Below are positions 24,001 through 45,000 of a stretch of DNA of 64,000 nucleotides, in pieces; position 1 is the stretch's first letter, and the number at the start of each line of letters is the position of its first letter. The position numbers were made by a program, and so were the translations under genes. This DNA comes from a bacterium (GTDB taxonomy: Bacteria > Myxococcota_A > UBA9160 > UBA6930), in the NCBI GenBank assembly GCA_024228115.1, contig JAAETT010000177.1, positions 689 to 64,688 on the forward strand, read 5' to 3'. The notes beneath the pieces were generated by a model. That model searched no databases and was not told where the DNA came from. It saw only the letters and a program-made list of their open reading frames with translations.

Positions 24001-27000
24001 CCTGATTGACCTGCGCACCGTCTTCGATCGTGGCCTCGGTGGTCTCGCGGCTCCAGTCGAAGGTACTGCTGGCCCAGAGACCGAAATTCCCGCTGTTGAG
24101 CGTAGTGCCGGTGATCGAGCCCCCTGCGGCGACCGCGTAGGTCTGGCCGAGAGTCGTGGCGTCGAGAATCACGCCCTTGCCGCCGAAGGCTTCGCCGTCG
24201 AAGCCCGAAACCGCGGTCGGCCCGCCCGCATCGGACCAGCCGGCCCCCTGCGCGAGACCCGAGACGCTCGCGCCGGCTTCGACCTTGGCGCGGGTCGTTC
24301 GGCTCACGACGGTCGCGGTCGCCGCCGCACCCGCTGCGCTCCTCTCCGCGGCCCCGAGGCCGCCCGCCACGGTCACCAGCAGAAGATCGTCCTCGGCGTT
24401 GATCACAACGGTATCGCTGGCGAGCACCGAGGCACCGCTGCGGACCGTCGCGTCCACGTCCACGTCGTAGACCAGGTAGCCGAGCTGACCGACCAACACG
24501 GTGGCTGCATCGCTCGCGTGGGGGCCGAGGCCGAAGGCGAAGTCGACGTTGATCCAATCCATCTCGTGGAGCGCGGCGATGATGACATCGTCGCCGCTGG
24601 TCACGACGGCCCCTTCGTCGACGTAGGCTGCAACATCGGCGGTGGCGTCGACGTAGGTGGCGGCAGCGCCGACACCGAGCTTCGATTCCCTCGCGGCGAC
24701 CGCGATGCCGCCCATCACGCCGAGCGTGAAGGCGTCGTGGTCCGCGATGACCTTGACGTCGCCCGAGGTCGTGATGACCGCGCCGTCTCCGAGGAAGGCC
24801 TCCGTCCGAACCCGGCGCACGCTGTATTCCGCTGCACCGGCTACAGCGGGCCCCTTCTTGGCGCCCGTGCCGCTTGCCCCGAAGCTCCACAGGTCCGCGG
24901 TCGAGCCGGCCCGAACGTCGAGCGCCTCGACGTCCAGCGTCGCGTCGTCGACGTAGGCGAGCACGACCTGGTCGTGGTCGTTCTTGATGAAGGTTCCGCC
25001 GATCCCCGTGTGGTTCGCCGCGACCCACGCGCCGCCGCCCGCGACCGCGAGAGTCTCGCTGTCTGCGTGAACGTCGACCTTGCCGTCGATGGTCGAGCCA
25101 TCGCCGAGGTTCGAGATGTACGCCCGCACCTCGGTGTGCAGATCGTTCCACACCGCGTCGCCCGAAATCGCCACGCCGAACTCGGTCTGCTGCTGGACAC
25201 CGCCGTTGCCGCTTCGTCGGAGCGCATTGATCGCCGACGCCGACCCGGAGAGCAGGCCCGAAGCATCGCCGGCGCCCCCGCCGGACCCTTGCGCACCCGA
25301 GACGTTCTCGGCGCTTTGCTCGAAGGCACTCTGGTTGTAGTTCTGGCTGTTGACGCCCTTTCGGTCCTGGGCGCCGATCGTGCCGGCCAGCGCGACGGCG
25401 ATGACCTGTTCACTGGCCTCGGCGTCGACCCGCAGATCGTCGCCGACGACGAGCTGGCCAGTTGCCGTTTCGGAGACGGCGACGATGTCGCCAGCCGCGA
25501 AGCCCGCCGCGGAAAGGCCCGCGTCGAGCTGCTGCTGGACATAGACGACCAGTTCGGCGCCAGTCTCGAGATCGGCCATCTCCGCCGGGTCCAGCAGGAC
25601 CTGGACGCTCGTGTCGGACAACGACAACGTCAGCGTCGCGGGCTCGAACGCACCGAGGGCTGCACCGAGACGATCCTCGAGGGCCGTCCTGACGTCGAAG
25701 GTATCGGCGAGCACGATGCCGCCGGCGGCGACGAAGCTCACGCTCCCGCTGTCCAGCGAGATCGTCACGTCCCCGGTGTTCAGACCCGCGCCTGTCAGCG
25801 CGGCGGAGATCGCGCTCTGGAGCTGCGCTTCGAGCTCCGCCTCGGAACGGTTGTTCCAGGTCTCCGAGGGCTCCAAGGACACGCTCACGTCGCCACCCTG
25901 GACCGTGAGAACGAAGCTCAGGGTGTCGCCGCCCAGGACGCCAGATTCCATGCGCGCGGCCAGCGCTGCGTTCGCCGCCTCCTCCCCGCTGACCGAGCGG
26001 GGTCGCGCGTTGATCTCGAGCTGCCCCGAGGCCCCCGAGACGACGACGTCACCCTCCTCGAGCCCTGCCTCGGTCGTCGCGCGGTCGAAGGCAGTCTGGA
26101 GGTCCGCCACGAGGTCGTCGAGACTCTCGTTGTCGGACGTATCGGCGGGGTCGACGAACGCGAGGAGCTCGACGTCCTGCCATGTGAACGGCAGTGCGAG
26201 CGGTCCCGTCGTGAAGCCGGTCCCACTCGCATCGAGGCGTTCATTGAGGACCAGATCGGCGATTCCGGTGTCCTGAAGAAGCCGCGCACTGCCCTCGGGC
26301 AAGGCGACGAACAACTCGTCGAGATCGCTGACTCCGATCTCGATCTCGCCCGCCACGAAGCCAGCGGCGACCAGTGCGGTGTCGACGACCCCCTGCACGT
26401 CGGCGGCCAGTTCTTCGAGCGTGGTGTTTCCGGCCAGCGATGACGGGAGCATCGTCACGCCGATCGCAACGCCGTCCAACGTCACCTCGAACGCGACCGC
26501 GGTTTCGAGTTCGGTGAGCACGGACGCCCCGGCTTCCGCAGCCCGGATCGCGTCAAGCGCAGCCGCCGCGGCGACCGCGTCGAGCGTACGCGTGCTTCCC
26601 GCAGGCAGACCGAAGACCACCTGGTCTCCATCGCTGCTGAACTCGATGTCTCCCGCCGCGAATCCGTTCGCGACGAGCAGGTCATCGACCACCAACTGGA
26701 GGGTGGCAGCCCGCGTAGGGGCATTCGCCGAGGCGCTCAGCGGGGTGCCGCTGAAATCGACCGCGAAGCTGACGCCATCGAGGGTGAGACTGAAGCTTGG
26801 AGCGAACGCCTGGCGCCGCTCGTCGACCAGCTCGACCGCCTCGTCACCTCCCCCGAGTGCGGGCGACGAGCTCGCGGCGGCGAACCCGACGGTGCCGAGC
26901 AGATTCGTCACGGCGATGTCGCCGGCATCGAATCCGGCGGCCTCGAGCGAGGTGTCGACCGCCGCTTGCAACGTCTCGACGAGCTCGTCGGGCGAGCCAT

Positions 27001-30000
27001 GCGCGACCGTATCCACCACCGGCACCGTGACCGAAATGGCGGTCTCGTCCACGACGAACTCGAAGGTGGGGTCGCTCGGCGCCAGGTCGAAGGGACTGAG
27101 CGTGCCGAGGGAGCGGAAGGCCGGGCCCAGATTCGGACCCGCCAAGGCCTGGTCGAGCGCCTCCTCGGCCTCCGCATCGAGATCGAGCACGTCACTACTG
27201 CCGCTCGGCAGCTGGAAGTCGACTCCGTGCTGATGCGCCTCGCCGACGAAGGCTCGGACCTCGTTGTCGAGGAGGGTGTACGACACCGCACCGCCGACGC
27301 CGAGGCGCTTCGCCTTGAGCAGCGTCCCCGCTCCCGTCGCGACGAAGACCTCGCCGCCTGCCAGCGTGTCGACATCCCCACCCGCGGTCACGAAGGCATC
27401 GTCGTCGACGTAGGCCACCGCATCGAGATCGAGGTCTTGGATGTTGACGGCGCCGCTCACGCCGGCCGACACGGCCGATTGAGCCTGCGCAACATTGATC
27501 AACCACGAGAAGGTGTCCGCTGCGACGCGGACCTCGTCGGCGGCTGTCACGACGGCGCCCTGGTCGATGAAGGCCGTCGCATCGTTGTCGTAGTAGACGA
27601 CGTTCGCACTGCCGCCGGCGCCGAAGCCGGCCGGGCGGCCCCCCAGCGCCACCAGGTCCGCGATGGAGGCTTGCCCGCCGACGTTGAGCGTTTCGAGCCT
27701 TGCGACGGCCTCGACGTTGACGTCCTGAAGGGCCGGCTCGGACAGGCCCGCTTGGAACACCGCGTCCTGATTGACCTGCGCGCCTTCGGCGATCCACGCG
27801 GTGGCGTGGTTGCCGTAGTCGAGGATCTGCACCCCGCCGCCGACCTGCAGCCCGTTCTGCTTGCCCGTGTTCGCGATCGAGTAGACCGTCGAGTTGACGA
27901 ACGTGCTCAAGAAGAAGTCCGGCAGGGCAAGGACGAAGATCGCGTCGATGATGAGATCGCTGGTGGTAAAATTCCGCTCCGCGATCTCGGTCTCGTCTTC
28001 GATGCGATCCGCGCCGGTCGCGGTCGCGCCTCCGTTGTCGACCGGCTCGAGCGGGACGCCGAAGAACAGGCGGTCGGAGAAATCGATCTGATGCGGCTGT
28101 CGCGCATCGGCGACGACGTTGAGCTGCCGCGCGACGTCTACGTCGGCGGCGCCGATGACGGCTTCGGCATCGTTGAACATGTCGGCGAAGGTGAGCGCTC
28201 CACCGATCGCGACGCGCGGGCCGGACGCCGCACCCGCGGAATCCATCAGCATGTTGTCTTCCGAGAGCGCGAGCACATCGGCGTTCCGCGCCTGAATGAC
28301 CGCCCCGTCGCCCACGATCGCCCTCGCGCGGAAGCGGGAGTCGACGGCGAGGACGCTCGCGCCGATCGCGATACCCCGGAAGATGGAGGCCACCTTCGTC
28401 AGACCTCGCTCGAAGAGAGTCTCCTTCGCTTTCTTGGTCTTGCCCTTGGCCTCGCCGCTGGCTTGGCTGCTCGTCCCACCCGTCCCCGTGGTGCCCGCCG
28501 CGCCGCCCGCGAAGCGTTCGGATTCCGAGAGCTGGCGCGCGTCGACGACGAAGTCTTCGGTGACGATGACCGTGCCGAACACCTCCGCATCGGCACTGTG
28601 ATCCAACGCGCCGATCGTGAGCCCGATCTGCGAGCTGGAGATGCTGGTCTTCAACGCGCCGATCCCACCGGTCGTTGCGAACAGGTCGTCATGGAGGTTC
28701 TGCGAGAGCACCGTGGCCTGACGAGCGTTGATCTGTGCCCCGTCGGCGACCTGGGCCAGGTTCGAGACGACCGACTCGTAGTCGACGAACGCAAGGCCGA
28801 GACTCGCTTTGGCTCTCTTGAGCGGCGGGAGCACGGCCGCGCGAACGCCGAGGACACCCGGTTGAGAGGTCAGCGACTCGGACTGCAGGAAGACCTCGCC
28901 GCCAGCTGTGACGACGGCCCCGTCTGCCAAGAGCGCCTGCACCATCGATTGGGCGTGGTGCAGGGTCACAGCCGTCGACAGGTTGAAGCGGCCCCGCACG
29001 AACAACAGGCTGAGCGCGTTGGACTCGTACAGCTGATCCGCCCGAACGCTGACGTCCTCGCCGGCTTCGATCGTCGAATTCTCGATGAAGGCCAAGACCC
29101 CGACGACCGCACTGGTATCGCCCCGCACCGGCAGATCGGCATCCGTCGCCGGGTCGCCCGTCGAGGTCAGGGGCTCGTCGGCCTGGATCGCCCGCAGCAC
29201 CTCGATCGTGTCGCGGTTGATCTGCGGGATGAACGCGAAGAGCTGCTGCATCGCGAACGCGATCGAACCGATCGCCGCCTCGATGTACTCCGTCGTATCC
29301 AGATACAGCGGATCGCTGCTTTCATCCTCGTCGATGACCTGGAGGAACGCGAGCTCGTCCTCCCTGAACGCGCGCCCGATCTCCCACGCAGAGACGGCGC
29401 CGGTGATCCCCAGTTTCGCACTGCTGGTCGCGATCGGAACCGAGAACACGTCGATGCTCGACAGCGCGACCACCTCCACGTCGCCCTTGGCGGCAACGTC
29501 GGCGTCGCGGATGAAGGCACCGGTGTCGTTGCGAACGCTGCCGAAGTCGAGGGCGCCGGACAGTGCGACCGAGCCCTTGAACTCGAGGCCTCCGGCGAAG
29601 CTCAAGGCATCGAGCTCGTTGACGGCGCTGACCGCGACGGTCTGGTCATCCCCGGCCCCGTCGGCGCCGTTGATCGTGGCGTCCTCGATGTACGCCAAGG
29701 TGTTCGCGTCGAAGACCGCGACGTTCGCCGCACCGACCACACCGAAGTTGAAGCCCCTCGCACCGCTCACGGCGAGCGCAGTGTGGCTCTCCTGCGAGAC
29801 CGCCTGCACGCCCACACCGTGGATGACCTCGAGTGCCAGGAACTCGGTCTCGGAGTTCGTGAACTCGAAGAAGACCGATTCGTTGTCCGGGCCAGGACCC
29901 GTCGCGGTGACGGCGATGCCCGAGTTGAAGCCATCGGCGACCAGGTCTTCGGCACTCGGCAGGTCGACCTGCCCCAACTCGCGGATCCCATCGCCGATCT

Positions 30001-33000
30001 CGTCGCTCAGCCAGAGAAGGAGGTTGTCCGTGTTGCCGATCACACTGAAGGGCCCTTGGATATTCTCCCAACCGGTGAAGCTGTTATCGGCGTCGGCGGC
30101 GTCGCGCTCCTCTTGGATGGCGTCGATCGCGAGCTGCGCGACGGCGAGATCGAGCGGCGCCTGAATGTCCCCGACCAGCGTTGCCGTCGAGTCGTACGAG
30201 GGCGCCTCCTCGCCCGAGAAGGGACTCGCCTCGAACGGGGCGACGAAGACGTTGTCGAGGGTGTCCGCGGCGTCGACGGCGAACGAGGCGATCTCCCCGC
30301 CATACGCGAAGGAGAGCGGAATTGCTTCGACGCGCGACGTGCTCACCGCGGCGACGGCCGTGCTCGCAGCGGCGGCCCCGCTCAACGACCAGGTCGCAGG
30401 GGCATCCGAACGGAGCGCGAACGCGATGCCGCCGCTGGCGTCCGCCGATACCACGACGTCGCCCTCCTCGAAACCCGCGGTCTCGAGCACGGCGTTCAGG
30501 GCCGCCTGAAGGTCTCCTGCCAGATCCGCGACCGTCTCGTTCTGTACGGTGTCCTGGACAGCGATCGTGAAGCTCAGACCCTGGGGCGTGGCACCCCCGA
30601 TCGAAATGCCCAGATCGTCGATGGTCACGGAGGAGTCGCGCCACTCCTCGAGGATGGGCGTCGTGAGGTCCACCGCGGCGCTGCTGATGGGCGACGCGAC
30701 CTCGAGTCGGATCACGTGGACAAGGCTTGCAAGGGTCACGGATCCCGAGGCTTCCCCCAAGTCCAGGAACTGGGCGTCCAGATCGTCCTGAAGCGCCGTG
30801 AGCAGTGCGGCATCGTCAAGGGTGCGGTCCGCAGAGATCGTCAACTCGACGTCGCCGGTTTGGCCGGACACGAACGCGGAGACGACGGCCTCGAACTCGC
30901 CGTTGGACCCCATACGGACCTCGTCGATCGACGCCGACACGACCCCGTTGCCGAACCCGCTCACGTCGAGGGCGTCACCCAGGGCCGCGACCGTGACGAC
31001 ACCGCTCGGCAGATCGTTGGCCAGCAAGGCCGCGTCCAGGGCCTCCTGGATCGCCGCCTGCTGCCCATCGGGATGCCCCAGGCTGACCGAAAGGGGGAGC
31101 TCGAGCGTCTGGTCCTGCTCCCCGTCGAAGACTTCGAGGTCGAAGGTGATGTCGAGCAATGCGGAGAGCTGCTCGTTTCCGTCGTCACCGACCAGGACCG
31201 TGCGCCGTCTCGCAATCTCACCTTCGGCCTCGGCCGCATCGACGGTCCATGGCTCGGTGCCGCCGGTGGGGTCGGCCCCCACGAACAGGATGCGCCCCTC
31301 CGGACTCAGCTCGACTTGGATCCCGCCCGTCGTCTGCTGCTCTGCCGTGAGCGCCGCGTCGACGGCTGCCTGAAGATCCAGAACGAGGTCGGCTGCACTT
31401 GCATTGTCGTCCGTCTCATCCGGGTGGATCTCGACGAGCAGGCTCTGCTCGGTGTCTGATCCAGGCAGGGTGTAGGAGAGCAGCAGAGGGACCGAATCCG
31501 ATCGCAACGAGGAAGCCCGATCGAAGATCACATCGCCGGCCCGGAGACCCTCCGCGTCCGACGCGGCGGCGTCGAGAGCGCGCTGGAAATCCTCCGCGAG
31601 GTCGCCAACGGTCGTATTCCCATCGGTGTCCTCGGCGGAGATCGTGACGTCGAGTTCCACCGTGGATCCAGCGCGAGTCACCTCCAGCGTCAGCTCGATG
31701 TCGGCATCGAGCTCGGGCCCCCGGATCGACGACAACGACTCGACGCCGTCGATCAGGACCACCTGCTCCACGGGGGCTTCGGCGGCCTCGAAGACGAACG
31801 GGTTCGCGCCGGTGCCGAGGATCGGGCGGCTGACGACCACATCGCCCGCTTCGAGCTCACGCGTCTGCAGGGTTACGCTCGTGCCGTCGAGCTCGGCGTC
31901 GAGCGCCGACTGCACCTGGGCGGCCAGCTCGTCCAGCGTCGTGTTGCCCTCCGTGTCGGCGGCGGCGACGGTCACAGACCATTCGGTGGACGTCTCCCCC
32001 ACCACCACCACGAACTCGAGGTCTAGATCCTCAGAGAGTTCCGCCGTGAGCCCCGGCGCAGAGAACCCGGTCGAACCGTCGGCCACGCCCGTGACCGAGT
32101 CGACGGGTCCTGCCGACGACGCGTCGAGCAGGAGCGTGTTGCCGTCGATCGTCGCCACGACGTCGCCGGTGGCGAGCTCGGCGCTGTCGACCACGACGAT
32201 CTCGCCCGCGACGGCGGCATCGACGGCCTGCTGGAAATCCGCGACCAGATCGGCCGTCGTCGTGTTGTCGCTGGTCGCTGAGGGCGTGACCGTGACGGGG
32301 AGGACCAAGGTCTGTCCCCGGTACGTCAGCTCCAGCGAGAACGTGACGTCCTCAGTCAGAACGACCTGGCTCGCCGCGGACTCCAGTGCATCGAGGGCCG
32401 CGTTGCCCTCGACGACGGCGATCTCCTCGATGCGCGGCCCGGGCGCGACGCCAAAGCGACGGGCGCCGAGCTGGGCCCCGACGGCTCCGTCCTCGTCGAT
32501 GTTGCTGTAGAGCGAGCCGTCCCCCGGGCTGAAGGTCAGGTCGCCCGCCGCGTCCCGGCCGACCACGATCTCGCCCGCGTTCCCGCCGCGCGCCCTGGTC
32601 GCCCGGTCGACGCCTGCTTGGACGTCCTCCCTCAGGGCCTCGAGCGACGGGTTGTCGTCGGTTGCACGGGGAGACACGACGACGAAGAGCGTCACGGCGC
32701 CATCGTTCTCGTGGTCCGCGACGAGGTTGAACACCAGGGGCATGACCAGCTGCGCCTGCGCGTTGGCGATGATGTTCTCGGCGGACGCCGTGTCGAGGGA
32801 GTTGCCGGCGATGACCGCGACGCCGTCCCCCTCGTTCGCGAGTGCATCGACGACCGAGCCGTCGTCGATGTAGGCCTGGGTGTCCTTCAGGATCCCGGTC
32901 AGGTTCAGACTCGCGTTGGCACTCGCGGTGACCCCGGACCCGAAGAGGTCCTTGCGAAGCGCACCGGCTCCCGAGAAGACGTCGGTATCACTCGCGTCCT

Positions 33001-36000
33001 GCGCGTTCACCAACACCGAGCCGTCTGCCATCACCGTCGAGGCGCCGGTGATGGCTGCCGTCGTGACGTTGTTGATCGTCATCAGCGGGATCGAGCCGTA
33101 GACGTTCAGCTCGATCAGGCTCAGGCCCCCGAGCGACACCTCGAACCCGAAGGCCCCCAGCTTCAAGGACTCGGTAGCCGTGGCGCCGACGATGACGTCC
33201 TGGCCCGCCTGGACCGTCGCATCCTCGATCAACGCGGTCGTCGTGTTCTCGACGGCCGACACGCCGAATGACGCACCTACGTCCGCCTGCACCAGGGACA
33301 GCGCGGTGAAACCGCCCACGCCGACTCCGGTGACACCCGAGTGGTAGTGGTCGCTCCCGGCCACCACGATCACATCCTGATCGGCGCTCGCTGCATCATC
33401 GGTGCGCGAGTTGACGTCGGCGCCCGAGATGAACGCGCGGGTCACGTTGCGGGCGGTGTCCAGCGTTCCCGACGCCTGCAGGTCCACCCCCACCGCGAGA
33501 TCGGCGTCGATCGCCCCCGCCAGGGCGTTCGACTCGATGTCGTCGCGATTCGAGGCCCCCACCGCGACGCCTCGCATCGCGACCGAGACCGGAGCGGCGC
33601 TACGGTCGTGGCTGAAGGCGAGGTCGAGCTCGGCGCTGGCTCCGAGCGATTCCCCGGCTGCCGGGCTCACCTCCGGGAGGGCCACCTCGCCGGTCTTAGG
33701 ATCGTCAGCGTCCCCGTCGATCTCGAAGAAGCCGGCGATCACGTCGATCGCCGGCCCGTTGCCTTCCGCATCGACGAGGGTTCCGTCGTCCGCGATGCTC
33801 GCATCGGTCCGCTTTTCGAGCAGTGTGCCGGTGGCCGAGACGCCGAACGTCTCCAGGCCGGCCGCGCTGAACAGATCACCCGCCTTCAGATCCGCGATCG
33901 TCTGGGCGTCGGCTTGCACCGCGACGTTGCCTTCCGAATAGACGTCGGATTGCTCCCCGATGCGCGCGCGCGTCGTCACCCTGATCTGGTAGGCACTCGC
34001 GGCACCGGCCACGGCGATCACACCGGTGGCACCGGATGCGGTGGCCGAGCGAATCCATTCCTCACTGTCCGCGGAAACGATGACGTCTTGTTCGGCCTCG
34101 ATCCGAGAAGCACCGCCCACGAAGGCCTGGGATGACTTGTTGAGGAATCCGAGATCCAGGGCAGCGCCGAGCCCGAGCCCGCCGCTTCCCAGCGCGCCCG
34201 CGGCGTTGTCGAGAACCGTCGCGTCCCACGCGAAGATCCGGACACTCGCCGCCGGGTCGGCCGCATCATCCCGCACGTCGATCACGGACGCATCGTCGAC
34301 GAACGCACGAGTCGCCGTCGTGATGTCGCTGAAGGTGGTGCTGCCGCCTAGGCCGACCGCCCCCGTGCCCACGACGACTGCATCGTCGCCTTCGGAACCC
34401 GCGACGTCCGGCCTGAAGTCGACCCGCGAGAGCGCCTCCACCGAGACGCCCGAACGCACGGCCGTCTCCTCACTGCGTTCCGCGGTCTCGGGGAAACCGT
34501 CCGGCGAGTCCGCCAGCCGTCCGGTGCGAATCCCGACCGCCCCGGCCCCGAGCGCCGTCACGCTCGAGCCGGTGATGTACGCGTTGCTGTCGTTCGTCTG
34601 GAAGAGCAGCGCACCCGACACACCGACGCCGATCGTGCCGCCATAGGCCAGCGCACCCGCCGCGGCCGTGATCGCGGTGTCCGCGTCGGCCCGGACCGCG
34701 ACGCTTCCCCCAGCGATCACCTCGACGCCGTCGAAGTAGGCCTGGGTCGCCTGCGTCACGAAGAAGAGCGACAGCGCACCCGCAACCGCGAGGTCCGTCG
34801 CGACTTCTTCGTCGGACCCTTCGTTGCCGAGCGTGTTTTCGGTCACGCCACCGCCCGTGGTCGAATCCAGCTGGGTCGCCGAAACCGCCTCGGCGACGAC
34901 ATGGCCGCCCACGTCGACCTCGGTCCCCTGATCGAAGAACGCGGACACGTCCTTGTCGATCAACTCGAGATCGACGCCGGCTCCGATCCCGATATCGGCC
35001 GCGTCGGCGAACCCGCCAGCTGCCGCCACGATCGTCGTATCGTGATCGGCTCGCGTCACCACGCTGGCAGTGCTCGCGGCCCCGTCACCATCGCCGACTT
35101 CCGCCCCGCGAAGGTACGACTCGACGCTGCTGCCATTCGCCAGCAGCGGAACGTCCTGGCCGATCGTGTTCACGACGACCGAGGCCGCGATCGTCAGGTC
35201 GTCGCCGGTGGCCTCGCCCGCGGCGTAGCTGAGAACTTGATCTCGCACGTCCGTATCGAGATGCAGCGCGTGCCGGGTCGCGATGTCGAGTTCGCCGCCG
35301 TCCGGGGCGGCGCCGACCAGGAAGGCGTCCAGGTCGTCCTGGACGTCGTCGAGCAGATCTTGCATCGACACGTTGCCGATGGTCTCCGCAGGCGAGAGCG
35401 GAACCAGCAGCGTCGTCGCTCGATCCGAGACGAAGTCGACCGGCACCGTGAACTCGAGCAGCGAGGAGAGCTGCGTCCCGTCGTCGCTCAGGTGCTCCTG
35501 GATCGCCTGGCCGGTCGAGACGCCGAAGGAGAACGAGACCAGATCCGAGTCCGCGTCGGAATCGACGTAGAAGAGGGTATCGAGGAACGTGAAACTCGTA
35601 TCGACGGACGCCCCGGCCTCGATGGCTTGACGGGCCTCGTCATTGATCCTGACGTTGACCTCGCCCGAGTCGTGCCCCACCGCAACCAGGCCTTCGTTGA
35701 GAGCGTCCTGGAGGTCGTCGCGCATGTCGGCGAGAGACGTGTTGTCCAGGGTATCGGCGGGGTCCACCGTGAACGGGACCTCGAGCGTCCGAACGAACCC
35801 TCCGAGGAAGTCCGACAGGTTGGTCCCGCCTTCCGAGAAGACCCCGAAGTCGAACTCCGAGAGTTCGAGGACGAACTCGACCGGCGCCCCGTCCAGCACG
35901 GCGCCGTTGCGCGCGTCGGAGATCGTGTCCCCGGCGTCCCCGCGTGCGTCGACCTGCACTGCTGCGGCCCCGGAGCCGAACACGATCTCCCCATCCGTGA

Positions 36001-39000
36001 CGCTGACGACGATATCGCCAGCGAGGATGATGCCACCCCGGTCGGCGATGGCCTCGTCCACCGCACCCTGCAAATCCGAAGCGAGGTCGGCGAGCGTCGT
36101 ATTGTCGTCGGTCGCGAGGTTGTCGACGACGACACGCAGGTCACTCTCGGCTCCCTGCTGCACGGTCGCGTCCAGCGAAAAGACCTGGCGCGGTGTAAGG
36201 AAACGGTCCTCGGTGAGATGAGCCTGGATCTCCGCTGCGAAGGCGACGAGTTCGTTTCTTTCGACCTCCAGCCTCGAGGTCGACTCGGGGGGTACGAATT
36301 GAACCGGGGCCACCAGGCTGAGTACGACAGCCGCTGCCCCGGCCTCTTCCAGGGGGAGCGAGACGTCGACGAAGTAGGGCACCACATAGGTCAGCGCGAC
36401 GTCATCGTTGAGAGCGTCGAAGAGAACCCGTTCGACCTCGTTCCGGTAGGTGAGTTCGAGATCGCTCTCGTCGTAGCCTGCGGCGGTGAGGCCCGCGAGG
36501 AGCGCGGCCTGCAGGTCGTCTTCGAGGTCCCCTGGGGACAGGTTGTCGTAGGTGTCTGCCGGGTCGAAGGTGAACGAGAGCTGCACCGCCTCGTCATCGT
36601 CGGTGGCGTCCAGGGTCAGAGTGATGGGCTCGGCATCGATCGTGTAGCCGTCCCCGACCAGGGAAGCTTCGAGCGCCGAGGCGGCCGTGCCGTCCGGATC
36701 CACGTCGCGGAAGATCGAGAACTGGGAACCAGGCTCGAAGATGACGGGGGCGTCGCCGCTGGTCCCGGCGGCCTCGATCACGGCACCATCGACATAGGTG
36801 CGGGTGTCGTGGCTGATGTTCGAGTTCGCGAGCGAGGCCCCCACCGAGGCGGTGGTGCCGGACGCCGCAGCACCGGCGATCTCGAACAAGTCCACGACGT
36901 CTTCGGCGCGCACGCGGATGCGCTCGCTGGTCGTGACCGTCGCACCTTCCGCGACGAAGGCCTCGACGGTGTGCGAAGGAGAGACCGATGAGACCGACCC
37001 CGAGATCCCGAGCGCCGGAAGTCCCGCGCCGACGACGACGTCGAGCTGACCTTCGCCGTCCAGATCTCCGACGGCGAGGCTGGTGGTGTACAACATCTCC
37101 GGCGCGAACTCGCGACCCGACGCGAAGGACCCGCTGCCGTCGCCGAAGTAGACGCGCGTCTCGTCAGACCGCTCCGCGTTGGCAGCGAGAAGGTCCAGCG
37201 CACCATCACCATCGAGATCGGCCAGAACGACATCGACCGTCGAGTCGGCGTCACTGCCGATGTCGGAGGGACGAGTCCACAGATGACGCGCCACGTCCTC
37301 TCGGACGCGGGCGTCGGCCACGACGGCCTCGGCCGCCGCCGTGTCGCCGAGAACCCGGGTGCTCCCCGCCGGCAACGCGAAACCGATGCGGCCCGCCCCG
37401 TCCACCGACACGACGATCGCGCCAGCCGGGAACGAAGGGACCTCGTCGTTCAACGCGGCATCGACGGCGGCCTGGAGGTCGGCCACCAGCGCCGCCACAT
37501 CCGCGTTGCCCACGGTCGCCTCAGCATCGACCTCGACATCGAGGATCTGGCCGTCGAGCTCCAACGTGAATTCGATTCGACCCAGGAACTCGTCGGCCCT
37601 TCGCAGCTCGGACAAGCGCTGGAACAGCGACTGCGTCTCGGCCCCGCTCGCGACGACCGTCAGAACCCCAGCATCAAGTCCGCGGGCGACGGACTCGGCA
37701 TCCAGCGCCGCTTGGAGATCCTCCTGAAGGTCGAACACCCCCTGGTTGTCGGAGCTCGCGTCCGCCGTCAGTGTCACGTCCCAGGCCTGGGCCTGGACCT
37801 CTCCCGTGACGGTGACGGTCAGCGAGACGCTGAGATCGGAACCTAGAACCCCCGAGCCGGCGGCGGCGTCGAGTGCCGCCTGGGAGGCCACGGCGACGGT
37901 CACGGCATCGATCGTGGTGGGCCGGGCGGCGAACCGCACGACGCCGCCGGATCCGACGCTCGCGACGGCGTCACCCGCCTCGAAGCCCGCCTCCACCAAC
38001 GCGTCATCGAGCGCGGCTTGCAATTGCGTTTCGAGATCGGCGGTGGAGGCGTTGTCCGACGTCTGGGTCGTGTCGACCGACACGAGAACGAACTCGCTCT
38101 CGCCGGCTCGGTCGACCTCCAGCGAGAAGACCGACCCGCTCAGGCTCGGGGAATTGTCTGGCCTCCCGTCCGCTCTGCCGGCAACAGCGTCGAGAGCCGT
38201 GGTCACGGCGCGTGAGGCGTCGACATCCAGGAAGACGTCGGAGTCCCCGACGCTGAAGGCGATGGAATCCGAAAGCAGCAGGTAGGCCGTGAGATCTCCG
38301 GCCGCGTAGCCCGCAGCGACGAGCGACGTGTCGAGCGCGGTCTGGAGGGCGGTGGTCAACCCTTCGAAGGTGACGTCCTCGAGATCGCTGCTCCCGAGCT
38401 CGATGCTGAGCTCGACGGCCTCGCCGGCTGCGGTGCGGGCCTCGAGCACGAACCCGAATGATGGCTTCAGCGCGAAACCGTCGACCTCGGCGGAGAGGAG
38501 CAGGCCCGCGCGACTTCCGTCGTCGACGAGGTCGAAGGTGCTCGGGGTCTTCTCGACCTCGATTTCATTGTCGATCGTCGACGCGAACTGGATCTGGCCC
38601 TGCGCGTCCAGACTCGCCGTCACGGCGCCGGCCGCCAGACCCGCCTCGTCCAGCTCCGCGGCCAGCGCAGCCTGAACATCCGCGAGCAGGTCCGCGCCCA
38701 ACTCGTTGTCGAGAGTCTCGTGGAGCCGGAGCCCGGAGAGGACCTGCGTCGTCTCGACGGTGCCCAACCCGGTGGCATTCCCGATGTCTTCGCCGATGCG
38801 GAAGTTGAAGCCGTCGGCGCCGACGCGATTGCGAAGGAGTTCGTTGGCGGAGCCATCGTTGCCGAGAACCAGATCCGCGTCACCGTCGGCATCGACGTCA
38901 CCCAGCGCCAACGCGCGCGTCGCGCTGGCGAGATCGACTCGCGGCAGGTCGATCGCTTCGGTGTAACGACCCGCGCCGTCGTTCAGATAGAAGCGCGTCG

Positions 39001-42000
39001 CCTGGCCAGCGGCGAACCCGCTCGTCAGATCGGAGAGGTCGACCCGCTCGAAGTCGAGATCCGGCTCGCCGATCAGATCGTTCGCGACCAAGTCGGAGAG
39101 TCCCGCCAGCCCCGACGCGACGACCTTCTCCAGCGACAGGTTCTCGATGATCAGGTCGCCCAGATCCACGAGGCCGGCCACGATGAACTCGCGCAGCTCG
39201 ACGACACCAGCCTCGAGCCACGCCCCCAAGGCCGGAACCGGATCCGAGAAGTCATCGCGATCGATGAGCCCCGCACCCACCAGCTCCGCCAGCCGTACGA
39301 TCGGCGCTGCCTCCGGGAGAGAGCCATGCTGGTGAGCCGCCGGCTCCTCATCGTCGTGGCCACCCACGAGATCCACGAGCAGGACTTGATCCGCCAGGGT
39401 CTGCGCGAGTCCGGCCTCCTGAAGCTCGAGCAGCGTCGTCAGGCCGGCATCCTGCAGATCCTGGGCCGTCAGCGAAACGAGCAGCAGGTTGTCGACACCG
39501 ACCAGGTCGTTGACGATCAGATCCGTCAGATCCGTGAGCCCCGCATCGATCACATCGCCCACCGAGACCGATGACACCAGATCGAAATCGAAGCGAGAGA
39601 CCAGATCGGCGTCGAGCAGGGACTCGAGCCCGAGCGAGATCGCCTGAATCAGCTCCTGGACGCCGATCACAGTCTCTTCGGCGAAGTCGAGCACGGTGAC
39701 GACCGCGTCGTCCACCAAGCCCGACAGGTCCAATCCGAGATTCGCGACGAAGGCATCCAGGTCTCCGTCCGCGTCGATGTCCTCGAGGCTGATCGCGGTC
39801 GAAAGGTCCGCTTCGGTCCCGAGATTCAGTGCGAGTCCGAAGACCCCGTCCTCGTTCAGGTAGATCTGGTTGCGACCGAGCAGATTCGAAACGGCGAGGT
39901 CGAGGTCTCCGTCGCCGTCGACATCTCCGAGCGCTATGTCCGTCGTGAGGCTCTCATCGACCGGCACGATCAAGCTGAGATCGGTATCGGCGCGAAGCTG
40001 GCCGACCTCTAGCGCCGCCGCATCTCGGCCCGTATCCGTCGACAGGCCCGCATCGACCCAATACGCGCCCATGCGCGTTGCGACCTCGGCTTCGCTCAGC
40101 TGAAGCGCCTCGGTCGCGGTGATCAGCCCTGCCGTCACGACGTCTGTGACGGAGACGAGCTCTGCCTCGAGCAACGCCAGATTGACTGCCGTCTCGAGAT
40201 CCTCGAGCAGATCGGCAGCGGTCACGTTGTCCCGCATCACATCCGATGCCACGGTCACGTCGAGCGTTTGCGAGCCGGCCGCCGTCGCGACATCCAGCGC
40301 GAAGCTGAACTCGGAATCGAGCACGAAATCGCCTTCGAAGGCGCCGAGCACGCTGAACTGCGCGCCGATGACGTCCGCCGTCGCATCAGCGGATTCGAGC
40401 GCCTCGAACACGCGCGTCCCCGTTCGTGAGGCCACGGACAGCTCGAACGGTCGGAGGGAATCCCGCGCCTCGGCCACCTCGAAATTCTCGACGTCGCCGG
40501 CGAAGCGCAGCCCCGTGATGTCTTCGAAGCCCCCGAGACCCGCCACGAGTTTGACGCTCTGGGTCGCGTCGGTGAAGACGTCCTGCACGGAGATGGAGAC
40601 TGTGCCCTGCGGAAAGCCTGCTGCGACGAGCGCCGCGTCGATGGCGTGTTGGAGGTCGGCCTCCAGATCGGCCACGCCGAGATCGAGCTCCCGACCTCGC
40701 AAGTTCGCAGGACCCCCCTTTGGCGGGAGTCCGCGATTGTCGAAGGTGTCCGTGGGATCGATCTCGACCGAGACGACGACCTCGTCGCCGTCGAGCGTCG
40801 TCAACACCAGCGGCAGCGTGAACGAGCCCACCAAGGTGGCCCCGTCTCGCTCGGACGCAACAGCCGAAGCGGCCTCGTCGTTCGCATCGACCGAGGTGAG
40901 GAGGCTCGAGGTGCCAACGGAGAACTGAATCGGGCGGGTCGACACGTCGACCTCGCCTTCGTGCGCGAAATCGAGGCGGCCTTCGGTCGCGTACACCTCG
41001 GAAGAAACGACGACACCGTCTGCGTCCGCGACGACGTCGAAGTCCACGGGATCCACCCCCCGAACGAGCAGCTCGGCGTCCAGCACGGCACGGACATCGT
41101 CGACCAGGTCGGCCGCGCTGCTGTTGTCGGCCGTGTCCTCGGCCCGAACCCGAAGACGCAGCTCGCCGGTCCGCGCGCTGCTGCCGACCGTCTGTCCTTC
41201 GACGAAACCACCGATCTCGAAGGGTGCGAACGCAGGCACCGGGTCGTAGTCGAAGACGTCGTCGAGCACGGCGTCCGCAGCCTCTGCCACATCTTCCAGC
41301 ACTTCGGAAAGCGCGGTCTCGTTCGCCTGCTGGTAGAAGCGGTTCGCCTGCCCGAGGTTTCCCGAAATCACGTCGAGACGACCGTCGCCATCGATGTCTC
41401 CGACCGCGATCGACGTCGTTGCGTCGGGAATGACACCGCCGACGCCGCCTCCGAGGAAGCCGATCTCCTGACCGCTCTCGAAGAAGCTCGGCCCGTCCTC
41501 GCCATCGGCATCGACGGTCTCGTTCAGGTAGAGGCGGTTGAATTGGAGGAAGTTGCCCGCGATCAGATCCTGATCGCCATCGCCGTCGATGTCCGCAAGC
41601 GCGAGCGACGTCGTGAGCGTGTCTTCGGGAGCGATGACCTCGGAACGCCGCCCCACGTCGAACGAGAGGGCCTCATTCGTGTCGAACGCCGCGTCGATCG
41701 CGCCTGTCGGAAGCCCAGCGGCGGCCAGCGCATCGTCCAGCTGCGCTTCGAGATAGGCTTCGAGTTCGTCTGCGGTCGTGAAGCCCAGGGTCGCCGAGCG
41801 GTCGATCGTGACGGTCAACTCGGTCAGCGCACCCTGTGGATCGACCACGCCGATCGTGACGTCCGCAGGATCCGTGAGCTGCAGACCATCCGCCGACAAC
41901 CGCGCCTCGACCTGTTCGGCCGCGACCCGTCCCACGTCGGCCGTCTCGAAGGGCCCATTGAAGACTGGCGAGAAGCGGATCACATCGGTCCACGCCGGAA

Positions 42001-45000
42001 TCGGCTCTTCCCTATCCTCCGCGGGGGTCACGTACTGGGAGGGAGCATCCACTGCGAAACCGACGACCAGACTGCCCGCGGCGTACCCGCGGGCCACCAA
42101 TGCCGCATCGATGGCCGCCTGGAGATCGGCGACGACGTCGAGTCCATCTTCGTTATCGGCGAAGTCGGCGGCGTCGAGAGACACCTCGAAGGTCAGATCT
42201 CCTTCCGTCGGGCTCGTCGCCACGATCTCGAAGCTCAGGCCGGCCACCAGCTCGAAGCCGTCCCGCATCGATTCCACGAGCGAGGCCGCCGAGCCGTCTG
42301 TGTCCACCGCATCGAAGCGGAAGGCGTCGAAGCCTTCCCCTGCGTTGTACAGCAGATTGCGCTGGGTCTCGCTTTCGGCCTCGGCCGCGGAGGCCGAAAC
42401 CGAGAGAACGAAGTCGTCACTCGTCGCGTCGATCCGGACGTCGCCACCCGCCGTCAGCTCCGCTCCGGAGGCCACGTACGCGCGCACCCGGTTGTCGATG
42501 ATCCCCAGGTCGACCGCCGCGCCGAGCGAGAGCAAGCCGTCGTCGACATCGACATCACCGCCGGCGACCGAGAAGATCTCACTGCGGTGCTCGGCGATCG
42601 CGTCGACCTGGCCCGTCGCGCGAACGACAGTGCCTTCGCCGAAGAACGCCTCGCCGGAGTTCCCGATCAGGTTCAGGTTCGCGGCTCCAGCAGCGGCACT
42701 GCTGAACGCGGCTTCCGTGCCGCTGTCGGTGGAGGCGACCACGTCGAGATCCGACAGCGCACGCAACGACAGATCGCCATCGGCGGCCTCGAGGTCGGCA
42801 TGCTTCGTGAAGGCGCGGGTCGCCTTGCGCATCCGGTTCATCGCGAACGAGCCGCCGATCCCGACGTGCTCGGCGAAGACCACGGCCCCCGCGCCAGCGA
42901 CTAGCAGCGTCTCGTCGACGGCGTCGACGCGAATGGCATCCGCGACGACCTTCTGGCTGTCGCGAACGAAGGCCTGCGTGTCGCCGGTCAGGTTGTTGAT
43001 CGCGACATCGGCCGAGAACCCGAAACCGAAGGCCAACGGCCCGCTGACGGTCCCGAAGCCGTCACCCGGTGCCGCCATCAGGTTCAGGTATTCCCGGGAC
43101 GGATCATCGGCAGCGACCTCGCCGCCGGCGTTCGCGCCGGAGACCGACACCGACCAGAGCTCGGCGTCCGCATGCGCATCCAGGGTCAGGGCCCCCGCCG
43201 CACGAACGGACCCCGTCTCGCCCCCCGTCCCCTCGAAGATCAGATCGCCGATGAACGCGCGGGTCGTCGCGTCGACGTCGGTGACGGCCACCGAGGCACC
43301 GACGCCTGCGGTCTCGCCCACCGCGACACCGCCCGCCGTCGTCACGAAACGTGACGCGTCCTCGGCCACGACGGTCACGTCGCCAAGCGAGGTCACCCGT
43401 GCGCGGTCTTCGATCCACGCGAGCGCTTCCTGTCTGGAGGAAACGATCGAGATCGACCCCGCCAGGGCGATCTCGCCAGCCTCGCTGCCGGCTTGCGTCA
43501 GCGCGAGGACCTCGGAGAGGACCTTCGCGTCGACCACGATCTCCGCGCCGATCAGATCGACCCGATCGTCGATCCACGCCAGGGAGCGGTTGCCGAGGAA
43601 GACCCCGTTGAAGTACCCGCCGAAACTCCCTTCCGTTCCGCCGGCCGCGGCACTGACGGTGGCCCCGTCGATGCCCGCGAGGTTCACCATCTCGACGGTG
43701 GCATCGCTCGCAACCCGGACGGTGCCGACCCGCGGAAGCGCCCCGCTCCCGGGCGTCAGGTCTGCCTGGACGGCAGCGACTGCAGTCGACCCCGGCACGA
43801 ACCGGAAACGCCCGGCCCCGGCCTCGACGCCAATCGCGTCTGCCAGCCCGCCATGCTGCTGAGCGAAGGCATCGGAGATCGCGGTAGCGAGCCGCGAGGC
43901 GAACTGCCCGAAGGTCTCAACGCCGTCGAAGAAGTCCTGGGCCAGAAAGAGGTCGACCTCTAGCACGGCGCCAGCGGCCTCCGGAGGGAAGCTCGGGTGG
44001 TCGACGATTACATCGATCCGGAAGCCCCGCCCATCGGGGTTGGGTGCGAACTCGAACCCGCCAGCGGTCAACGCGTCCGCGATTCCGGCGGCGGCGTTCG
44101 GCAGGTCGATGTCGACGATCGTCGTTCCCGCTCCGAAGGCCGACGTGAACGGAGTGGCGTCGGCCACAACGAAGGAGAACAGATCGGAGAGGACCTCGAC
44201 GTCGCCCCCCGCCAACCCGGCATCGACCAACGCGGCATCGACGAGGCCCTGCAGTTCGCCGCGCACACCGGCCAGGCTGGCGCCTCCGCTGCCATCGCGG
44301 AGGATCTCGAACTCGACCGCGTCGCCGCCCGCGGCCGGTGATACCTCGAGACCGATCGCGCTGGCGCGCTGATTGATCTGGGCACCGGGCGCGATCGTCG
44401 CCGCCGCTACGTTGTCGAGCGAGAGCACGTTGACGCCGCCGGCGACGCCAACCGCCGCGCGATCGTCGAGACCTGCGGCCGACTCGACGAAAGTCGTCGC
44501 GCCGAGATCACCGTCGCCGAGCTGGGCTTGGAGGAACGAACCCAGCGGGTCGAGCGCGGCGTCGAGTTCGTCGGTGACGATCTCTCCGGTGCGATAGGCA
44601 TCATCGATCTGATCGGTGCCCGCCGACAAACCCACGCCCGGCAGATCGAGCTCTGGAACGAAGCTCTCGAGGATTGGACGAGGCACCTCCGCGGCCGCCT
44701 CGACATCGAGCGCCGTCCCCGCGTCGATGTAGGCGGCATGCCCCACCGAACTCGTCGCTTGGTTGTCGAAGCGGGACCACGCTACCGCGCCGCCCAGCGA
44801 GCCGAGGTCGGCGTTGCCGGCTCGCGCGCCAGCGGAGACCTGAATCGGGTCGGTCGCCGTGGCCCCGACCGCCACCGTGCCCGCGGCCACGATGTCCGCG
44901 CCGCCGCCGATCAGCGCGGCCGCGTGGTTCTCGCCACCGGCCAGACTCTGCGCGGAACCGAGATTGATGCCGACGTCGAACGCACCGTCGAGGTCGAGCG

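Follow-up and report, generated by a model that had tools for sequence, protein, structure and literature searches.

Introduction

Proteins of giant size built from repeats have been known before, as have LEPR-XLL leaders and RTX blocks; LapA and SiiE, like the Marinomonas primoryensis protein considered at the end of this text, are giant RTX adhesins with arrays of extender domains. Giant flagellins have been described in general by Thomson et al. 2018 (PMC6248924), and the head domains of FliD are peripheral and dispensable for filament assembly, with a role in adhesion suggested for them (PMC8533109). The Pfam family Flagellin_IN (PF07196) has a central Ile-Asn pair, and Leu-Gln is found at the same place in the structurally similar finger domain of T4 gp11 (PMC9751261). 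Here a stretch of 64,000 nucleotides from a bacterium of the lineage Myxococcota_A (assembly GCA_024228115.1, contig JAAETT010000177.1, positions 689 to 64,688), referred to below as the window, was analysed for a protein module which an earlier note, made from the letters alone, had described as recurring and apparently unnamed. All copies of this module lie within one giant protein; the module is predicted to fold as a compact domain, has relatives in several hundred other proteins and appears to be homologous to the outer units of giant flagellins.

Results

The module recurs in a single giant open reading frame

The earlier note was silent on strand. The peptides that it quoted are encoded only in frame 1 of the minus strand, and all copies of the module fall in one minus-strand open reading frame (ORF) of more than 50 kb. 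This frame is free of stop codons from position 50281 to position 2 and has an ATG at 50269; the ORF (2..50269, minus strand) leaves the window at its left end and comprises 16,760 codons, so that the protein has at least 16,760 residues and a size of more than 1.7 MDa. It is rich in Ala (14%) and Asp (10%), poor in Lys (0.7%) and contains no Cys. The guanine-cytosine (GC) content of the window is 68%, and the GC content by codon position in this frame (0.70, 0.48 and 0.85) is consistent with coding on the minus strand. The ORF list also holds dozens of long plus-strand ORFs. Plus frame 2 has only 48 stops across positions 1-54300 of the window, compared to about 390 expected over 54 kb, and a frame so nearly free of stops would fill ORF lists with spurious plus-strand entries. 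Genes on the plus strand were rejected, on codon-position GC and on the Arg content of the hypothetical product of plus frame 2 (15.7%), as the antisense shadow of the giant gene; gene callers blind to codon-position GC would be misled by them.

A profile hidden Markov model (HMM) was seeded with a relaxed form of the motif given in the earlier note, which matched 11 sites, and was iterated at a fixed length of 97 columns; left free to grow, the model ran into adjacent copies and reached 190 columns, and the fixed-length model was therefore used. It recovered 34 copies with independent E-values of about 1e-10 to 1e-25, falling into four arrays (of 5, 9, 9 and 6 copies) and five single copies. 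The core of the module is about 80 residues long and its period about 95, and together the copies make up some 19% of the giant protein. With 20 shuffled versions of the protein no HMM match below 1e-3 was obtained, and the best match in the reversed protein had an E-value of 3e-4.

The arrays, like all other copies, are read from the minus strand. Array A (40058-42280, residues 2668-3408) has five copies with independent E-values of 1e-14 to 1e-22, and one of its gaps holds an FG-GAP repeat recognised by Pfam at about residue 2955. Array B (35207-38851, residues 3811-5025) has nine (1e-18 to 2e-25) and is broken at residues 4317-4538 by FG-GAP_3 (residues 4355-4417) and by two units (residues 4423-4510) of the 56-residue repeat described below. 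Nine further copies form array C (30032-32779, residues 5835-6750; 7e-10 to 1e-23), and array D (25412-27112, residues 7724-8290; 1e-16 to 2e-23) consists of six copies placed head to tail. Single copies are found at 45521-45790 (residues 1498-1587; 7e-17), at 44126-44407 (residues 1959-2052; 4e-14), where the copy lies inside an envelope of the 56-residue repeat at residues 1943-2055, and at 21893-22168 (residues 9372-9463; 4e-18), flanked by 56-residue units; this last copy is the first example peptide of the earlier note. Two more are diverged, one at 13658-13912 (residues 12124-12208; 3.5e-10), which lacks the D-N-x-S/T motif, and one at 11381-11647 (residues 12879-12967; 5e-12).

The count of at least 33 copies made by eye is thus borne out by the 34 found with the iterated HMM, and the array coordinates then given agree with the HMM arrays to within about 100 bases. 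Single copies had been listed at about 45.7, 44.2, 22.05, 13.8 and 8.9 kb; the first four were recovered, whereas the fifth is only a degenerate remnant (8777..8959, minus strand), seen by eye as ...MAELIEGQINQALLAGDLGLRIQLDF... with the helix ...ELIEGQINQALLAG..., which stays below threshold, the HMM matching only weakly in its vicinity (E 0.32). That list lacked the copy which the HMM found at 11.4-11.6 kb.

The copies are strongly diverged from each other, as had been stated earlier. Their mean amino-acid identity is 26% (maximum 42%), and their codon-aligned DNA identity is 46% (maximum 57%) against a background of 33%; Tandem Repeats Finder detected no DNA tandem repeat inside the module arrays. 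Since identity between the copies is so low, the duplications are old and are not an artefact of assembly.

Predicted fold and conserved positions

A single copy from array D (residues 8106-8197) was modelled with AlphaFold2, using the 34 copies of the window as the alignment, and a confident model was obtained (predicted local distance difference test score (pLDDT) 84.2, predicted template modelling score (pTM) 0.74). The model consists of a beta-hairpin (strands 16-22 and 25-31), a loop, an amphipathic helix of 18 residues (42-59), a second beta-hairpin (strands 67-72 and 75-80) and a further strand (86-91). Two strands, a turn and a helix had been guessed correctly from the sequence, but three strands close the module and not one.

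In the modelled copy Ser41 and Glu44 stand at the start of the helix, and on this basis the conserved [ST]-x-x-[DE] is, in the model, a helix N-capping box. It is preceded by T-x-[DG]-N in an exposed loop; what had been taken for a D-N-x-S/T turn is more aptly described as a turn that leads into the N-capping box. The Asn is present in 77% of the window copies and 78% of the homologues described below, the Leu at +6 in 82% and 92%, and a Ser or Thr two residues after the Asn in 72% of the copies. Within the helix there is a [LIV]-[QN] pair; Leu, Val or Ile followed by Gln is found in 88% of the window copies, and in the homologues the second position of the pair is Gln in 57% and Asn in 26%. 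The conserved positions are thus alike in the two groups. Across the 34 copies no column is conserved at 90% or more, and no conserved pocket-like residue set or polar cluster was seen beyond the positions that determine the fold.

A model of three consecutive modules was much poorer (pLDDT 56.5, pTM 0.32). The same elements recur in each module, while the linkers have pLDDT values below 50, from which it appears that there is no fixed geometry between modules. This fits, as far as the model goes, independently folding beads without a fixed mutual orientation; the confidence of the three-module model is too low to say more about packing than that it is not fixed.

The module is not described in curated libraries

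When the 34 copies were compared one at a time with Pfam-A and NCBIfam (E<=1), nothing but isolated matches ascribable to chance came back. The module portion of ten homologous proteins was likewise without Pfam cover, a search of PDB sequences with the module gave nothing at E<=1e-3, and Foldseek with the module model against PDB and BFVD gave nothing at E<=1e-3 and no significant structural neighbour. It therefore holds that the module is unnamed in the Pfam-A, NCBIfam and PDB-based libraries searched; no significant match of the module HMM to a described family was found in any of them. The earlier impression that it matches no named repeat family stands for the curated libraries, but relatives do exist, in 334 other proteins, among them giant flagellins whose outer repeats fall narrowly below the Flagellin_IN threshold.

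The weak matches in the Foldseek PDB list include a Campylobacter hook-filament junction-cap complex twice, FliD once and flagellin outer domains, with template modelling (TM) scores of 0.37-0.48; the two junction-cap chains, at 630-635 residues, are by their length probably FliD. The weak lists are also rich in insert domains of phage baseplate, tail and sheath proteins. Several named families were also considered. An identity with immunoglobulin (Ig)-like extenders (Big, cadherin-like) was rejected on the helix-bearing model and on matches that are isolated and due to chance (one copy matches Big_5 at E 0.031, for example). In its element order, beta-beta-alpha-beta-beta, the module may fit a beta-grasp; MBG_2 matched one copy weakly (E 0.11), and no ubiquitin-like folds stand near the top of the Foldseek PDB list for the module model. 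In the homologue P0003 no single stretch passed, and its scores of 42.7 bits for Glyco_hydro_65C and 31.5 bits for Flg_hook were taken as the summed contributions of eight weakly matching repeats and not as membership.

A further candidate, MBG_2 itself, was rejected on the homologue P0009, where MBG_2 and the module-like units occupy separate, alternating stretches. At residues 560-1680 of this protein (1915 residues) a short form of the module, with the helix and AGDI-V-V…GR, alternates strictly with Pfam MBG_2; both unit types begin K-x-Y-G-x-A-D-P, which hints at a composite repeat or at kinship of the units.

Relatives in giant secreted proteins

Word-indexed searches, whether with the module alignment or with a six-module array, were swamped by low-complexity matches, and an exhaustive HMMER scan of 1.84 billion protein cluster representatives with the module profile was used instead. 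The scan yielded 334 carriers at a threshold of E<=1e-3; 84 of these have E<=1e-10 and 12 reach E<=1e-30. Some carriers, of 6-7 thousand residues, have as many as 21 matched stretches. Carriers with a source name are called 'hypothetical protein', and the organisms include Chloroflexota, Deltaproteobacteria and a Halobacteria metagenome-assembled genome (MAG). Among the best 150 of the 334 carriers, 22 have a LEPR-like N-terminus, 36 have at least three RTX motifs, 32 are at least 3000 residues long and 6 contain the 56-residue repeat. VWA and FG-GAP domains accompany the module; FG-GAP is present in the window protein, and such domains are found in the homologues. The module family thus comprises about 330 cluster representatives, which are mainly giant LEPR-XLL/RTX proteins, with a shorter-helix form in giant flagellins.

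Giant flagellins carry related units

Seven of the best 150 carriers are flagellins, of 1131-1811 residues, with scan E-values of 1.6e-13 to 6.4e-9. Pfam was run on four of these: P0056, P0091 and P0106 have both Flagellin_N and Flagellin_C, and P0124 has only Flagellin_C; phmmer with the P0056 termini added P0073, P0109 and P0115. Their outer region consists wholly of 8-11 tandem units of about 86 residues, in a layout like that of the module. When the window modules were compared by hhalign with 33 flagellin units (set A3) the probability was 95.8% and the E-value 6.9e-9, although this score is inflated, set A3 having been picked with an HMM that contained window modules; the real alignment scored 48.8, whereas none of 20 column shuffles exceeded 7.7 and an unrelated repeat reached 9.7. 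The comparison was repeated with 45 units chosen by a flagellin-only HMM, and still gave 87.7% and E 3.4e-6. Homology of the module to the outer units of giant flagellins is, at the level of sequence profiles, well supported.

The flagellin units in turn point to Flagellin_IN. The A3 profile against PDB placed FliD, residues 130-196, in all of the top six positions (E 0.0056-0.04), and an HMM of 70 flagellin units built with hmmalign matched the FliD segment in one register and over its full length with 29.5 bits (E 7e-6 in a PDB-sized database). As a positive control, residues 130-196 of Salmonella FliD scored 37.1 bits on Flagellin_IN PF07196 (threshold 22.7). Furthermore, both consensus sequences of the flagellin units have Flagellin_IN as their best-scoring Pfam family, again over its full length.

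Architecture of the host protein

The N-terminal 1400 residues (46082-50269, minus strand) form a head with LEPR-XLL, HELGH, phospholipase-C-like and Golvesin_C-like parts, and this head is conserved as a unit. The LEPR-XLL motif (...LEALEPRILLSADP) lies at 50129..50173 on the minus strand (residues 37-51; NCBIfam NF012209 LEPR-8K, 27.7 bits against a cut-off of 17). It is followed by a region resembling zinc-dependent phospholipase C (48977..49333, minus strand; residues 317-435), with HELGH before it, which scores 24.8 bits on PF00882 and so falls under the cut-off of 26.8. Homologues of residues 1-1400, annotated as LEPR-XLL or as zinc-dependent phospholipase C proteins, contain PF00882 and PF25275; they have at most 42% identity over 91% of the length and come from Burkholderiales, Planctomycetales, Verrucomicrobia, Rhodospirillaceae and other MAGs. 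Such a head region could serve as the functional tip of fibres of this kind.

Between the module arrays lie tracts of a 53-56-residue repeat, all on the minus strand. Tract 1 (42377..46039, residues 1415-2635) encloses two single modules and matches NF012206 LktA_tand_53. Tract 2 (32777..34996, residues 5096-5835) separates arrays B and C, and tract 3 (27146..29749, residues 6845-7712) arrays C and D; both were detected with a de novo HMM. Tract 4 (14288..25183, residues 8367-11998) is interrupted by one inserted module. The NF012206 scores for three 5000-residue pieces of the protein were 98.8, 189 and 84.8 bits against a cut-off of 50, with 24 stretches in residues 1400-12000; the matches behind tract 4 are those with 189 bits over 10 stretches and 84.8 bits over 7. 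These matches concern the interleaved tracts and not the module. The de novo HMM of the 56-residue unit gave 73 copies, in blocks alternating with the module arrays, and the block-wise interleaving described earlier is thus confirmed; its beta-helix part is a reading of the family name and the sequence pattern, from which the tracts are here taken to be beta-solenoid or beta-helical. The single modules at 44126-44407 and 21893-22168 (minus strand) are placed within or between 56-residue units, resembling excursions from a rod. Near the end of the window an RTX calcium-binding nonapeptide block is found (1337..1753, minus strand; residues 16177-16315), with 73.1 bits on PF00353 against a cut-off of 23 and matches to NCBIfam RTX families. 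Pfam found neither Flagellin_N nor Flagellin_C in the host protein.

Gene neighbourhood

No transporter gene was found in the 13.7 kb upstream of the giant gene, where PEP-CTERM proteins, a glycosyltransferase and hydrolases are encoded; downstream the ORF leaves the window. About 300-470 bases upstream of the ATG, at or just past the end of the adjoining PEP-CTERM gene, a GC-rich 42-bp unit (…CCGGTCCGGTGGGGCCGGGG…) is repeated 3.3-3.9 times with 73-77% matches (50582-50743). Small secreted proteins with PEP-CTERM-type ends are encoded at 50723-51403 (minus strand; VPEP…RGRRRRV, seen by eye) and at 56467-57306 (minus strand; PF07589), and the organism probably has an exosortase system.

Between these two genes lies an ORF of 1293 residues (51581-55462, minus strand) with a signal peptide, Cys-rich stretches and, at its end, RRLRLRRRNR after a hydrophobic segment. 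The N-terminal part of its product is a paralogue of the zinc-phospholipase-C-like head of the giant protein, with WKPYTH…GPDGFPDL…HP corresponding to FKPYTH…GPDAFPDM…HP; Pfam gave nothing for this ORF at E<=0.001. Further neighbours are a GT1-like transferase (58150-59463), two HAD/LNS2-like proteins, an alpha/beta hydrolase and a GDSL lipase.

Discussion

On balance the explanation that we favour, if with some reserve, is that the module is a folded repeat domain, kin to flagellar outer domains, which acts as a spacer bead in an exported fibre. The LEPR-XLL leader, the acidic and Cys-free composition, the RTX block, the filamentous repeats and the FG-GAP repeats together point to an exported giant fibre. 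The giant protein would accordingly be a very long surface or extracellular fibre, built from stiff rods of repeats and, in between, strings of 5-9 bead-like modules whose linkers are short and poorly ordered. Reach, flexibility and a variable acidic surface display would come from the modules, which would have no part in catalysis. That the FliD heads are peripheral and dispensable fits such a decorative or extender role. The module itself probably represents a divergent branch, with a long helix, of the flagellar outer-domain family.

Besides the inflated score of set A3, several points weigh against this reading. Export, the fibre shape and any dependence on calcium are read from composition and the names of the matched families, the window ends before the C-terminus and does not take in any secretion genes, and the beta-solenoid nature of the 56-residue repeat is assumed. 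The connection to Flagellin_IN is not direct either. The flagellin units themselves score 17-21 bits on PF07196, below the threshold of 22.7; none of the 34 copies has PF07196 among its listed families at E<=1; and the module family consensus, although aligned with model positions 1-54 of 55, reaches only 11.3 bits on it (E 0.41). Scored on the FliD segment, the module HMMs gave E-values of at least 1.5, and hhalign with that single segment a probability of 0.9%. Finally, when the flagellin-unit profile was built with MAFFT, FliD came only in eighth place (E 0.079), with annexins and a de novo protein ahead of it. By Pfam's own criterion of 22.7 bits the module is not a member of Flagellin_IN. 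A distant relationship, joined transitively through the flagellin units, nevertheless seems somewhat the better reading of the sequence comparisons.

Alternatively, the modules may be primarily adhesive, the arrays forming multivalent surfaces that would bind polysaccharide or the corresponding modules of adjacent fibres. The homology to surface-exposed flagellin outer units is consistent with this, as are the adhesion suggested for the FliD heads (PMC8533109), the fact that some flagellin and FliD outer domains adhere or dimerise, and the presence, here and in homologues, of FG-GAP and VWA, which are typical of adhesive proteins. Against it, the copies are only 26% identical apart from the positions that determine the fold, and share neither a column conserved at 90% nor a pocket-like residue set. 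Adhesion as the primary role is possible but is not what we expect; an adhesive or self-associating role is compatible with a structural one, and in that form is a live alternative.

The likeness of the module to Flagellin_IN and the FliD head could also be due to convergence on a common small beta-beta-alpha-beta-beta layout, such as a beta-grasp-like or Top7-like one, the module being a separate family to which only the giant-flagellin units are truly homologous. The direct comparisons with Flagellin_IN and FliD are, as noted, insignificant, and the module consensus prefers Flg_hook (17 bits) to Flagellin_IN in Pfam. The flagellin-unit profiles, too, catch the M7 de novo protein, Top7 variants, redesigned ubiquitin (0.24) and DUF348 (two units) similarly weakly. 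It is against this that the hmmalign-built HMM of the flagellin units gives a clear E-value on a bona fide Flagellin_IN segment, that this family is the first choice in Pfam for both flagellin-unit consensuses and FliD takes the leading PDB places with set A3, and that [LIV]-[QN] occupies the same helix position as in Flagellin_IN and gp11 (PMC9751261). Convergence thus appears doubtful, and a distant kinship with the flagellar domains is preferred.

More speculatively, and by analogy with sheathed or dimerising flagellin outer domains, the module might record an exchange of surface domains between the flagellar filament or cap, which uses type III export, and giant LEPR-XLL/RTX fibres, the arrays zipping molecules laterally into a self-assembled coat or bundle and not forming a lone tether; this we regard as rather unlikely.

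The conserved N-x-S/T might instead be an N-glycosylation acceptor, such that the arrays carry glycans added by a cytoplasmic HMW1C-type or a PglB-type transferase. The Asn and the Ser or Thr are frequent (77% and 72% of the copies) and lie in the loop before the helix, and a GT1-like gene is found 8 kb upstream (58150-59463). The helix N-capping box, however, suffices on its own to explain the conservation of Ser/Thr and Asp/Glu, and the flagellin relatives keep the Ser or Thr but have G-x-Y in place of the Asn. Furthermore, the acidic residue is at -1 and not at the -2 that PglB requires, and the transferase encoded nearby has its match in EryCIII-like GT1 and not in GT41 or an oligosaccharyltransferase. 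Glycosylation of the arrays is accordingly judged very improbable. That the module is an artefact, whether of composition and low complexity in a high-GC shadow frame, for which the 68% GC and the long spurious opposite-strand ORFs might speak, or of a repeat made by assembly, is scarcely credible in view of the 16,760 stop-free codons with fitting codon-position GC, the blank shuffles, the confident fold prediction, the 334 independent proteins from other assemblies that carry it and the divergence of the copies, which is too great for assembly duplication.

The finding reveals no new mechanism, and the role of the module is one that we infer. Its value lies in annotation: the curated libraries leave about one fifth of a protein of more than 1.7 MDa unannotated, as they do comparable portions of some 330 further protein clusters, many of which are thousands of residues in length, and a family model made from these copies would annotate such regions. 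It would also tie 'hypothetical' stretches of giant secreted proteins to the outer domains of flagellin and FliD, giving a structural and evolutionary handle on both.

Comparison with known systems

Among the closest known relatives are the outer units of giant flagellins, which share with the module the element order, the tandem layout, a unit of 85-95 residues and the [ST]-x-x-[DE]-L...[LIV]-[QN] helix. They differ in having G-x-Y-[ST] for D-N, in being rich in Lys, Glu and Thr whereas the module is rich in Ala, Asp and Gly, and in their place between the flagellin D0/D1 helices of a protein that leaves the cell by flagellar export. The 'DE region' repeats of Oceanospirillales (PMC6248924) are described as another, larger unit.

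Flagellin_IN, as seen in Salmonella FliD 130-196 (PDB 5H5T) and in flagellin p5 of Sphingomonas A1, has the same strand-strand-helix-strand-strand order, an [ST]-capped helix with a central hydrophobic-amide pair (Ile-Asn, for Leu/Val-Gln in the module) and then G-[IV]-x-A/V and G-x-L-x-[LF]; its domains are, moreover, peripheral, surface-exposed and often repeated. In the module, by contrast, the helix and loops are longer by about 25-30 residues, the host is not flagellar and the TM score is only 0.37-0.48. The finger of T4 gp11 and the beta-domain of p5 (PMC9751261) likewise set a helix with a central Leu-Gln (gp11) or Ile-Asn (p5) on a beta-sheet, but with no significant sequence or structure score, so that this likeness is a lead from the literature.

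In overall build the host protein resembles the giant RTX adhesins. The extenders of region II of the Marinomonas primoryensis adhesin (PMC3492233) also come as tens of tandem units of about 100 residues, diverged to identical, in an acidic, Cys-poor protein of megadalton size with RTX repeats, and are proposed to hold the remainder of the protein at a distance from the cell. Those extenders are, however, all-beta Ig-like sandwiches, whereas the module has a long helix and no match to an Ig-like family; here, too, LktA_tand_53 tracts are interleaved and the N-terminus is LEPR-XLL and not a retention module. With RTX adhesins secreted by type I systems the host protein shares the RTX nonapeptide block towards the end of the window, and with the LEPR-XLL (NF012209) and LktA_tand_53 (NF012206) proteins it shares scores above both curated cut-offs; those two models describe the leader and the 53-residue repeat, and the module lies outside both. 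What is new, therefore, is a well-defined domain family with hundreds of members which the curated libraries have missed, together with its link to flagellar outer domains.

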